From IMG/VR virus record IMGVR_UViG_2740892427_000003: a DNA stretch of 53,833 nt; one strand, given 5' to 3'. The notes beneath the pieces were generated by a model, which saw only the letters and a list, made by a program, of their open reading frames with translations, was not told the DNA's origin and made no database searches. The stretch comes from a virus (lineage: Duplodnaviria; Heunggongvirae; Uroviricota; Caudoviricetes). Positions within the stretch are counted from its first letter, which is position 1. Each line of letters begins with the position of its first letter. This document shows, piece after piece, positions 35,577-37,946 of this stretch. The position numbers and the translations under genes were made by a program.

Positions 35577-36512
35577 TTAACGTATGTGCACACAACCTGA
35601 ACCGGCATCAAAAAACAAACCGTGCACTGACAGAAAACGGGAAACCTCCGTCCGCTGATCATCACTCATTAAGGACCACACAAAGGCGTTATGCTCATCT
35701 TCAAGTTTCCGTCTTCTTGTTTGCCTTACAAGCAACTCAGCCGTCACCTGTACAATGTCAATGACCTCCTTCTCTTCAGCAATGTACGGCCTGTTCCAGT
35801 TGTCTGTGTTAATCTTCTCCGTCACCGGCGCTGACTTTTTGCAAGTTTCCCCATTAAACCCGACGCCATAAACAACAACATCATCGCTTTGCTTTTCGTT
35901 ATCAATAATGACGAATAATACAGAAACCGATGTATCAGCGAACCCGCCTGAAATCTGAACCAACTCAACAACGCGGTTGCCAAAATACTGACGCATTGCC
36001 AGCTCACCACGCCTGTAACCAACCCCGGGAAAGCACAAAAAAAATGAAAATCTTGCCTTCATGCTCGCCAGAACATAAAACGCGTCATCCAGAACACCGG
36101 AGGTCTTTTTATAAGGCATCATCGCTGAAATCTTCTCCCTGATATCCGCGCTCTGTGCTTTGTACTGTAGCGAAAAAGGCGGATTCATGATGACACAATC
36201 GAACGTGTCCGTGTCACTGACATCATCGATGGCGTTGAAGAAATTTTCATTGACCGTCTTCACTGTGGCATCCGGGAAATTATCCGGGATATGCAACAAC
36301 GGAGAGGCCTGTATATCCACAGCATACAGACTTCCCACCGTGAGAAACTGCTCCAGTTGCCCGGAGCCACACGCACCATCAAAAATACTCAGGGGCAGAT
36401 CACCACAATATTCCCGCACTTTTTCAGCGACAAACCGACGCAAAGGAACGGACGTGATGTACTCTGCGTATTTTCTGGCGACATCGCGATTATTGGACTC
36501 CTGAAAAACCAT
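35577..36512 (-). CDS. N6-adenine DNA methyltransferase, gamma class (orphan)
   Basis: Motif I FDGACGSGQ precedes motif IV DCVIMNPPFS; start set to ATG 36510-36512 (GTG at 36572 also possible). Confidence 0.7.
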   Translation of the reverse strand: MVFQESNNRDVARKYAEYITSVPLRRFVAEKVREYCGDLPLSIFDGACGSGQLEQFLTVGSLYAVDIQASPLLHIPDNFPDATVKTVNENFFNAIDDVSDTDTFDCVIMNPPFSLQYKAQSADIREKISAMMPYKKTSGVLDDAFYVLASMKARFSFFLCFPGVGYRRGELAMRQYFGNRVVELVQISGGFADTSVSVLFVIIDNEKQSDDVVVYGVGFNGETCKKSAPVTEKINTDNWNRPYIAEEKEVIDIVQVTAELLVRQTRRRKLEDEHNAFVWSLMSDDQRTEVSRFLSVHGLFFDAGSGCVHIR

Positions 36513-36597
36513 TTGTGAAAGGCTCTGTGGTTGATATGCGCCGGGCGTGGCGCGGAGGCAAAAAAGGCCCACAAAAGCGAGCCAGGAAAAATAAGTG

Positions 36598-36674
36598 TGG
36601 TGCGTTGTACTGGATTCGAACCAGTGACCGATTGCTTAGAAGGCAATTGCTCTGTCCGGCTGAGCTAACAACGC
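36598..36674 (-). tRNA. tRNA-Arg (anticodon UCU)
   Basis: 77-nt cloverleaf folded by hand: acceptor GCGTTGT/ACAACGC, anticodon loop CTTCTAA, T-loop TTCGAAT, encoded CCA. Confidence 0.85.
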
Positions 36675-36687
36675 AGTGTACAGATAA

Positions 36688-36764
36688 TGGACCGCCATCG
36701 AGGACTCGAACCCCGCGCAACCAGCTTCGAAGGCTGGCGCTCTATCCCGATGAGCTAATGGCGG
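36688..36764 (-). tRNA. tRNA-Arg (anticodon UCG)
   Basis: 77 nt: acceptor CCGCCAT/ATGGCGG, anticodon loop CTTCGAA, T-loop TTCGAGT, CCA. Confidence 0.8.
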
Positions 36765-36771
36765 TATGTGA

Positions 36772-36847
36772 TGGTGGCCCTTGCTGGATTTGAACCAGCG
36801 ACCTGGCGATTATGAGTCGCTCGCTCTCACCACTGAGCTAAAGGGCC
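36772..36847 (-). tRNA. tRNA-Ile (anticodon CAU, lysidine type; ileX-like)
   Basis: 76 nt: GGCCCTTTAGCTCAGTGGTGAGAGC...CTCATAA...GGTTCAAATCC...CCA, very close to E. coli ileX as recalled. Confidence 0.85.
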
Positions 36848-36887
36848 GGGCGCAGGATAATAACGGTACGTAACTAATCCTGCAATA

Positions 36888-37946
36888 TCATCCGTTCTGA
36901 CTGGCTAAATCCTGAACTTCCCTGACCGTCTGCTCAAAACGTTCAGTCTCCAGCTCAACGCCAGTTGCACGACGCCCCAGCGCCATCGCTGCTTTGACTG
37001 TCGAACCCGACCCCATGAAAAAATCTGCAACCAGGTCACCCGGACGACTGCTCGCGCTGATTATCTGCTGCAGCATTTCTGCCGGTTTTTCGCACGGATG
37101 TTTCCCGGGATAGTACTGCACCGGTTTATGCGTCCACACATCGGTGTACGGCACCTGCGCCGTCACACCGAAATACCGCCGCAGATGCTTATATTCACTC
37201 TGCAGTTCCGTATAGTGTCGGTTCAGTTCACTGTATGTGCTGACCAGTTGGTGATGTGGCTTTTCCAGTTCTCCGCGCTGATGCTTCTCTTCTGCCACCC
37301 GGGCAAACAGCGCCTGTAATTTCAGATAATCGCTTTCGTCCGGTAGCTGCCACTGACTGGCACTGAACCAGTGCGACACCATGTTTTTCTTTCCTGTGGC
37401 ATCAGCAATCTGTTTTGCCGTTATCCCCAGGGCAGCACGTGCATCACGAAAGTAAGCAATCAGCGGGGCCATCACATGCTGTTTCAGTGCCCTGCCCTTC
37501 GCCTCATACCCGGCATCTTTCGGACGATACGGCCCCTGATAATGTTCCGCGAACAGAATGCGCTCTGTGGCGGGGAAATACGCCCTCAGGCTTTCCTTGT
37601 TGCACCCGTTCCAGCGTCCGGACGGCTTCGCCCAGATAATATGGTTCAGCACACTGAAGCGTTCACGCATCATGATTTCAATGTCAGATGCCAGGCGATG
37701 GCCACAGAACAGGTAAAGACTTCCGGCAGGTTTCAGCACCCGCCAGAACTGCGCCAGACACTGGTCCAGCCACTTCAGGTAATCATCGTCGCCCTTCCAC
37801 TGGTTATCCCAGCCCTCAGGCTTCACTTTAAAGTACGGCGGGTCCGTGACTATCAGGTCAACAGAATTTTCGGGTAACGACCGGATAAATTCCAGGCAGT
37901 CGGCGTTGATTAACTCACAACTGGATATTTTTACAGTATTAAGCAT
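36888..37946 (-). CDS. DNA methyltransferase, beta class (N6A/N4C family), orphan
   Basis: Motif IV DPPY near the N-terminus and motif I FFMGSGST near the C-terminus. Confidence 0.8.
   Translation of the reverse strand: MLNTVKISSCELINADCLEFIRSLPENSVDLIVTDPPYFKVKPEGWDNQWKGDDDYLKWLDQCLAQFWRVLKPAGSLYLFCGHRLASDIEIMMRERFSVLNHIIWAKPSGRWNGCNKESLRAYFPATERILFAEHYQGPYRPKDAGYEAKGRALKQHVMAPLIAYFRDARAALGITAKQIADATGKKNMVSHWFSASQWQLPDESDYLKLQALFARVAEEKHQRGELEKPHHQLVSTYSELNRHYTELQSEYKHLRRYFGVTAQVPYTDVWTHKPVQYYPGKHPCEKPAEMLQQIISASSRPGDLVADFFMGSGSTVKAAMALGRRATGVELETERFEQTVREVQDLASQNG

Follow-up and report, generated by a model that had tools for sequence, protein, structure and literature searches.

A rare, predicted gamma-class adenine methyltransferase gene occupies the Shiga-toxin slot beside an M.EcoGII-type enzyme and three tRNA genes

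A methyltransferase gene occupies the Shiga-toxin slot

We analysed the window, a 53,833-nucleotide caudoviral sequence (IMG/VR record IMGVR_UViG_2740892427_000003) in which two DNA methyltransferase (MTase) genes flank three tRNA genes at positions 35577 to 37946. The beta-class MTase gene and the rare-codon tRNAs form the accessory block that prophages of the Shiga-toxin type usually carry among their late genes, a common module that is mostly published. The new element is a rare gamma-class MTase gene, which occupies the Shiga-toxin (stx) slot. We consider it likely that the segment is an accessory block at the start of the late operon of an stx-negative lambdoid prophage of the Stx-phage type, and that it works by the mechanism proposed below. 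A first-pass annotation, made from the sequence alone, had described two MTases of differing classes around three tRNAs. We observed this arrangement, with both open reading frames (ORFs) on the minus strand and the tRNAs called by ARAGORN and Rfam. Both proteins carry the motifs quoted for them, in the order given. The first-pass annotation recognised neither the canonical Stx-phage module nor the location of the gamma gene in the stx slot.

The gamma gene lies in a cargo cassette of ~1 kb (35517 to 36559), delimited by blastn breakpoints against three comparison loci. In an O157:H7 prophage the slot is empty; nothing lies between the tRNAs and the flank formed by an STnc100-type small RNA (sRNA) and nanS-p, and window position 35516 abuts 36560. 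In the Stx2 phage ASU11, the interval homologous to window positions 35510 to 36548 holds stx2AB. In the prophage of strain 83972 the slot holds TerB and DUF3927, and homology resumes at 36517 (5 nt before the ATG of the gamma gene) and at 35521 (55 nt after its stop codon). By these breakpoints in the three loci, the replacement is almost gene-precise. The G+C content of the cassette was 0.476, compared to 0.523 for the window.

On the tRNA side of the slot, a terminator-like hairpin stands just after the tRNAs (36566 to 36583, minus strand). It contains a GTG at 36572 and was kept in all four of the aligned phages and prophages. The distal border is an STnc100/PasD-type sRNA (35270 to 35476, minus strand; Rfam RF02076, 134.9 bits) with a terminator hairpin at 35279 to 35298. 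A second copy was found at 34778 to 34990 (minus strand; RF02076, 164.6 bits), and a weak third match at 35056 to 35229 on the same strand scored 28.5 bits, under the gathering score. Both strong copies end in the hairpin AGCCCCTCTCCGGAGGGGCT. These tandem copies may be the homology used in cassette exchange. Stx2 phages likewise carry STnc100/PasD-type sRNAs upstream of nanS-p (bioRxiv 10.64898/2026.05.13.724894). The comparison indicates that the Shiga-toxin slot takes alternative cargo (stx, TerB/DUF3927, nothing or a methylase), which bears on the gain and loss of stx.

Strain 2013C-3033 (O146:H21, stx1c-positive) carries a prophage with 99.6-99.8% identity to that of the window. Read along the minus strand, the gene order of the window is the late antiterminator gene Q, pR'/tR', a MazF-like ORF, a winged-helix ORF, the beta MTase gene, tRNA-Ile2(CAU), tRNA-Arg(UCG), tRNA-Arg(UCU), the cargo slot, the STnc100 sRNAs, nanS-p and the lysis genes, followed by the terminase, head and tail genes. 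Stx2 phages show matching gene order and gene identities around the slot. Compared to Stx2 phages of the 933W/Sakai type, the window shares the order and the flanks (Q, MTase, ileZ-argN-argO, slot, nanS-p), and its beta MTase is identical at 339-344 of 352 residues. It differs in having an MTase and no stx in the slot, in its Q type and in the MazF-like ORF inserted after Q. A tblastn search of the window for stx2A and stx2B gave nothing significant, so the prophage does not class as an Stx-converting phage.

The gamma enzyme is a methyltransferase core without a recognition domain

The gamma gene (35577 to 36512, minus strand) encodes a 311-aa, HsdM-core-like N6-adenine MTase, as judged by motifs, fold and homologue alignment. 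Numbered on the 311-aa form, FDGACGSGQ (residue 44) precedes NPPF (residue 110), as in gamma-class enzymes, and no recognition domain separates the two. Both motifs were invariant in 63 homologues. The coding sequence most likely starts at the ATG at 36512: the alignment shows 21 homologues whose first residue matches this methionine or lies only a few residues away, and a relative with 79% identity has exactly 311 aa. The first-pass annotation had used a 331-aa ORF, whose start we moved on the basis of the homologue alignment and the non-conserved GTG. This GTG (36572) falls inside the conserved terminator-like hairpin; in the alignment, GCG stands at its position in each of the three related prophages and phages. 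We also rejected the start given by the Prokaryotic Genome Annotation Pipeline (PGAP), a TTG at 36443 (288 aa), which would delete seven invariant N-terminal columns.

Profile searches gave low scores for this protein. PF02384 matched with 21.5 bits (cutoff 20.4) and covered residues 116-251 only, and the hsdM profile TIGR00497 reached 25 bits against a cutoff of 243. The structure model, which was confident, showed a catalytic Rossmann core at residues ~1-235, then a helical hairpin at 253-296 and a short beta hairpin. Only ~75 residues, mainly the helical hairpin, follow the catalytic core, which leaves no target-recognition domain. In a fold search, DNA N6-methyladenine (m6A) MTases (HsdM, M.TaqI, M.BseCI and CamA) ranked first, before METTL5 and other RNA MTases. 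The structural neighbours have 470-570 residues, with a recognition domain or S-subunit binding, and a fold search of BFVD returned solely larger, distant MTases. By its modelled fold and its motifs, the gamma enzyme is thus predicted to be a gamma-class DNA adenine MTase. The ratio of nonsynonymous to synonymous substitution rates (dN/dS) against the 79%-identical copy was 0.10, which indicates purifying selection.

We also considered a substrate other than DNA for the gamma enzyme, namely protein or RNA, such as rRNA or the tRNAs beside it. Weak matches to PrmC-type and MTS-type profiles point that way, as do one source that labels a homologue 'predicted RNA methylase' and the position of the gene next to the tRNAs; M.EcoGII, the published relative of the beta enzyme, also acts on RNA (PMC5778455). 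Such a substrate is highly improbable in view of the fold ranking, in which DNA m6A MTases lead over METTL5 and similar enzymes. Family members in Providencia and other phages do not lie beside tRNAs, and some relatives are paired with a DNA-specificity subunit.

The PGAP annotation of the near-identical prophage, which comprises 70 features and covers window positions 1-50000, contains no restriction endonuclease and no specificity (S) subunit. Neither hsdR nor hsdS is among these features, so the locus does not class as a Type I restriction-modification (RM) system. A search of the window with an S-subunit hidden Markov model found no S-like ORF, with a model that is narrow and also missed EcoKI HsdS. 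These results agree with the first-pass statement that neither an endonuclease nor a specificity subunit is nearby. Across the structure model, the window and the annotation of positions 1-50000, the gamma enzyme has neither a recognition domain in cis nor a partner S subunit.

PADLOC matched both proteins, and only with MTase profiles of Type I and Type II RM systems. These matches would fit the view that both MTases are functionless leftovers of RM systems that have lost their nuclease, which we find barely credible. Both genes are solitary, as first described, and intact; the inactivating lesions that had been named as refuting were not found. The beta MTase and tRNA module is kept in 1754 of 5426 complete E. 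coli genomes (at least 80% coverage), with no nuclease annotated in the contexts inspected. The low dN/dS of the gamma gene also argues against this view, and no nuclease neighbours the gamma family in any context examined.

Relatives of the gamma enzyme and the question of DNA recognition

The gamma cassette was present in 12 of the 5426 complete E. coli genomes and in no E. coli phage record. The carriers found were mostly human isolates, several of them named or typed as E. coli that makes Shiga toxin (STEC). The nearest phage homologues are 40-43% identical and belong to Streptococcus, Fusobacterium and Mannheimia phages. Relatives are encoded on 333 IMG/VR viral contigs; the family measures 275-330 aa throughout and was found in phages or prophages in every context examined. 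The 79%-identical copy lies on a metagenomic contig, with a Q-like gene and two Arg tRNAs on its upstream side and nanS-p on its downstream side. By this position and the low dN/dS, the gamma gene is a maintained resident of the slot in more than one lambdoid lineage. In strain 2015C-3121, one of the 12 carriers, the insertion sequence IS1 stands at ~36580 between tRNA-Arg(UCU) and the gamma gene, where it would uncouple the gene from the late transcript.

In the largest IMG/VR lineage, which is Streptococcus-phage-like, the gene overlapping the MTase stop codon encodes a half-size Type I S subunit of 181-186 aa (Methylase_S, PF01420, 6.6e-17). The S-partnered phage relatives are ~40% identical to the gamma MTase. 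Within this lineage, MTases that are 90-94% identical occur with and without the S gene. The translationally coupled pair of MTase and half-S, with no HsdR, was observed at locus L026 (4915-5475) and at 55 other IMG/VR loci. We found no S-like neighbour in the remaining sequence groups, in the Providencia prophage, in another phage or in the E. coli clade. No cluster of shared neighbour genes spans more than three of the eight sequence groups, which is weak evidence, as the 80 IMG/VR loci are highly redundant.

Compared to HsdM, the gamma enzyme has the same gamma-class motif order with NPPF, and its C-terminal helices lie where the HsdS-binding helix sits. It is ~200 residues shorter and lacks the N-terminal domain, and the prophage yielded neither HsdS nor HsdR. 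An hhalign comparison of the family profile with EcoKI HsdM aligned only 15 columns, around NPPF, and is uninformative on HsdS-binding compatibility. The likeness would suit an HsdM mimic that uses a host Type I S subunit and either boosts methylation of progeny at host sites or poisons host complexes. The HsdM-like core, the placement of helices 253-296, the half-size S subunit that adjoins the phage relatives and the occurrence of near-identical MTases with and without S all speak for a mimic of this kind. We nevertheless regard it as decidedly improbable: the hhalign match covers the NPPF segment only, and the C-terminus of the enterobacterial clade differs from that of the S-partnered clade. 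In addition, late expression would leave the incoming genome unprotected, and the invariant catalytic motifs argue against a pure decoy.

An S-less HsdM-core MTase under purifying selection raises the question of what recognises the DNA. Relaxed specificity, homodimerisation via the C-terminal helices and a host S subunit are the possibilities. Hia5 is a phage-encoded, late-acting adenine MTase with very relaxed specificity and a broad anti-restriction effect (PMC3299994). Hia5/M.HaeV, from Mu-like prophages, are functional analogues of the gamma and beta enzymes, with an architecture homologous to neither. We rejected homology between Hia5/M.HaeV and the gamma enzyme: Hia5 belongs to the Dam-like alpha class, has an FxGxG motif, carries DPPY at residue 194 and possesses its own recognition region.

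A more far-reaching proposal, which we hold to be doubtful, is that the 311-aa enzyme is a self-sufficient HsdM-core adenine MTase with no recognition domain and little or no specificity. It would then represent a third lineage of phage hyper-methylases, of the gamma class, alongside the alpha-class Hia5/M.HaeV and the beta-class M.EcoGII, derived from a 'mini-M + half-S' arrangement by loss of S. If a non-specific gamma enzyme does sit in the stx slot, the slot would be a general late-expressed cargo site for phage-benefiting as well as host-benefiting genes. A non-specific gamma enzyme would also be a possible small reagent for m6A footprinting.

The beta enzyme belongs to the M.EcoGII family

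The beta gene (36888 to 37946, minus strand) encodes a 352-aa, beta-class N6-adenine MTase (Pfam N6_N4_Mtase PF01555, 7e-44) that is an orthologue of M.EcoGII. DPPY stands at residue 35 and FFMGSGST at residue 309, the beta-class order in which motif IV precedes motif I. The protein is identical at 333 of 348 positions (~96%) to the M.EcoGII sequence of PMC11551740 Table S1, which was machine-read from a PDF, so that a few of the differences may be reading errors. Both enzymes are prophage-borne and share the DPPY...FxGxG order and a nearly identical central helical recognition region, with only three substitutions in residues 160-237 (domain limits from PMC11551740). The beta enzyme differs by ~13 substitutions and by its last five residues. 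All sequence features that we checked agree, and on sequence grounds the beta enzyme falls within the M.EcoGII family. By its sequence it is not a site-specific MTase of an unknown kind; as an M.EcoGII orthologue, it belongs with an enzyme that has no motif.

M.EcoGII, like M.EcoGI, is a non-specific beta-class adenine MTase from a prophage of E. coli O104:H4 C227-11 (PMC5778455). It lacks a recognition motif and methylated adenine whatever the dinucleotide context, and its methylation blocked all 18 of the 18 m6A-sensitive restriction enzymes tested (PMC5778455). Constitutive expression of M.EcoGII was harmful, and it was not expressed in the lysogen (PMC5778455). Self-methylation as anti-restriction is the published view for this enzyme (PMC5778455). 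The anti-restriction role first suggested for the window's MTases is therefore supported by what has been published for the ~96%-identical M.EcoGII; the epigenetic role in the lysogen suggested alongside it is unsupported. A comparison of methylomes between the lysogen and a cured strain would probably be blind to both enzymes, with a null result refuting nothing, because M.EcoGII lacks a recognition motif and is unexpressed in the lysogen. If the beta enzyme is of M.EcoGII type, methylome studies of lysogens in general would miss it.

The module is shared with Stx2 phages. Window positions 36549-38431 are 95% identical to ASU11, where stx2A/stx2B and nanS-p come after the same three tRNAs and the same 352-aa 'DNA adenine methylase'. 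A 'very similar' MTase gene has been reported in the Stx2 phage 1720a-02 (PMC5778455), which was the best DNA match to the window. PMC6266700 is silent on both the tRNAs and the MTase. The sequence comparison suggests that the gene labelled 'site-specific DNA-methyltransferase' in about one-third of complete E. coli genomes encodes an M.EcoGII-type non-specific enzyme, which forms a fixed module with ileZ-argN-argO.

Three tRNAs read codons that are enriched in the prophage

The tRNA cluster comprises tRNA-Ile2(CAU) of the ileZ type (36772 to 36847; Rfam 72.5 bits), tRNA-Arg(UCG) of the argN type (36688 to 36764; 56.1 bits) and tRNA-Arg(UCU) of the argO type (36598 to 36674; 71.4 bits), all on the minus strand and all called by ARAGORN. 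They read AUA (after a putative lysidine modification), CGA/CGG and AGA/AGG, respectively. ARAGORN labelled the CAU tRNA as Met and PGAP as Ile. It is identical to K-12 ileX at 68 of 76 positions, including a compensated stem change, compared to 54 of 78 for elongator Met and 49 of 78 for initiator Met. Because of the PGAP call and the identity to ileX, we assign it to Ile and not Met; judged by its sequence, it has an Ile2-type body. The identities and codons first given for the three tRNAs were correct on all of these grounds (ARAGORN, Rfam, ileX identity and PGAP).

The tRNAs are named ileZ, argN and argO in the O157:H7 phage Stx2a_WGPS2, and the CAU tRNA showed no differences from ileZ of that phage in the alignment of four loci. 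Mean column identity across the cluster in this alignment was 97%, and both order and position are those of the Stx-phage ileZ-argN-argO cluster. A literature search on ileZ/argN/argO, slot cargo and carrier strains gave nothing useful except the serotype of 2013C-3033 (O146:H21, ST442). We observed two terminal variations: tRNA-Arg(UCU) has discriminator A73 in the window and G73 in three related phages and prophages, and the 3' end of tRNA-Arg(UCG) is UCCA, which gives a U discriminator.

We counted codons in 58 prophage genes (12,494 codons) and in five K-12 genes. Per 1000 codons, the prophage genes used AGA 6.1, AGG 5.8, CGA 4.6, CGG 15.2 and AUA 7.8 times, compared to 0.5, 0.5, 3.3, 4.9 and 5.5 in the K-12 genes. 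Genome-wide frequencies in E. coli are ~2 (AGA), ~1.2 (AGG), ~3.5 (CGA), ~5.4 (CGG) and ~4.4 (AUA) per 1000. The structural genes were enriched solely for CGG (19.6 per 1000), a codon that tRNA-Arg(UCG) can read through wobble. The gamma MTase gene used AGA and AGG at 12.9 per 1000 each. The most biased gene examined was stx2A (AUA 47, AGA 19 per 1000), which is absent from the window.

Late expression and the proposed mechanism

The MTase genes and the tRNAs lie downstream of Q (39232 to 39921, minus strand; Pfam Phage_antiter_Q 6.3e-90; PGAP), all on the Q strand. A pR'-like promoter, TTGCAA-17-TATATT, overlaps the end of Q (39220 to 39248, minus strand); it was found by a consensus scan, and its function is suggested by its position. 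It is followed by a tR'-like intrinsic terminator, CCCGCCGCCGAGCGGG and then a T run (39150 to 39165, minus strand), identified by hairpin scan and sequence reading. Between 34400 and 39400 we counted 18 terminator-like hairpins, compared to 5.3 ± 2.2 expected. The consensus scan found no promoter-like site between 38573 and the gamma gene. At the equivalent position in Stx phages, stx is under pR'/Q control (PMC8065619). The position after Q, the interval free of promoter-like sites and the dense hairpins are the reasons for which Q-dependent late co-expression is proposed; together with the stx precedent, they support the first-pass suggestion that the MTases are co-expressed with late genes.

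These data suggest the following mechanism. In the lysogen, pR' would fire constitutively, and transcription would end at tR' and at the further hairpins, so that both MTases stay silent. Upon induction, Q-modified polymerase would read through, so that the late transcript includes the sRNAs and tRNAs together with both MTases. The MTases would then methylate replicating phage DNA before packaging, so that progeny could resist m6A-sensitive restriction in the next host. The gamma MTase would methylate DNA adenine as well, independently of the beta enzyme. The same transcript would release the tRNAs, which would add decoders for AUA, CGA/CGG and AGA/AGG, codons that the prophage uses more than host genes do.

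Several points weigh against this interpretation. The main weakness is that, if almost all adenines are methylated by an M.EcoGII-type enzyme, a second adenine MTase looks redundant. Alone, an HsdM-like core that lacks an S subunit may also be inactive or non-specific, and one phage lineage has a coupled half-S. The promoters and terminators were called solely by consensus matching. Finally, the rare-codon excess is not confined to late genes and is largest in the early/nin genes: AGA, AGG, CGA and AUA together reached 33 per 1000 there, compared to 17 per 1000 in the structural genes. The codon-usage check of the late genes proposed in the first-pass annotation therefore gave enrichment of the cognate codons across the prophage, and the late-gene specificity did not hold.

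The gamma MTase could instead be a lysogenic-conversion gene, expressed in the lysogen, whose site-specific methylation of the host has an epigenetic or regulatory role. The slot is otherwise used by conversion genes (stx and TerB), and the mostly human origin of the carriers, with several STEC among them, is consistent with such a role, as is the purifying selection on the gene. We consider this role unlikely, as the interval from the tRNAs to the gamma gene contains no sigma-70-like promoter, and the conserved terminator-like hairpin stands directly upstream of the gene. A protein that has neither a recognition domain nor an S subunit would not be expected to act at a defined motif either, and relatives in other phages lie in early or late modules of the lytic cycle.

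Neighbouring genes and other observations

The first conserved late gene past the slot is nanS-p (32584 to 34551, minus strand), a sialate O-acetylesterase gene with Pfam DUF1737, SASA and DUF6645 matches that is named NanS-p in phage ASU11. On the other side of the module, a small winged-helix ORF (38097 to 38294, minus strand; phrog_331, 6e-38) gave a weak TrmB match. In every related phage inspected (ASU11, 83972 and WGPS2), it directly precedes the M.EcoGII-type gene, and it could be a controller of the beta MTase. A terminator-like hairpin (38093-38110) stands at the end of this ORF.

A PemK/MazF-like toxin ORF lies between Q/tR' and the MTase module (38637 to 39038, minus strand; Pfam PemK_toxin 8.3e-14; phrog_15698; PGAP). 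No antitoxin partner is annotated for it, and the Stx2 phages compared lack this ORF; a functional link to the MTases is not known. Between this ORF and the winged-helix ORF, at 38426-38601 on the minus strand, we observed a second promoter-like site, TTGACA-17-GATACT (10 of 12 matches), and two strong terminator hairpins, which resemble a second pR'/tR' unit. The hairpins fall inside a PGAP 'hypothetical protein' (38314-38511) that has no Pfam match and is probably not a gene.

Two observations concern the structural genes. A 162-bp tandem repeat (19901-21312; 8.7 copies, 96% matches) lies in a 677-aa ORF (19444-21477, minus strand) that immediately follows the portal gene. Compared to 2013C-3033, in which PGAP reads a frameshifted portal gene, the window has four extra copies of this repeat (648 bp). 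An ompC porin gene (11524-12678, minus strand) lies within the tail-gene module; going by how PGAP annotated the near-identical prophage, it is a moron.

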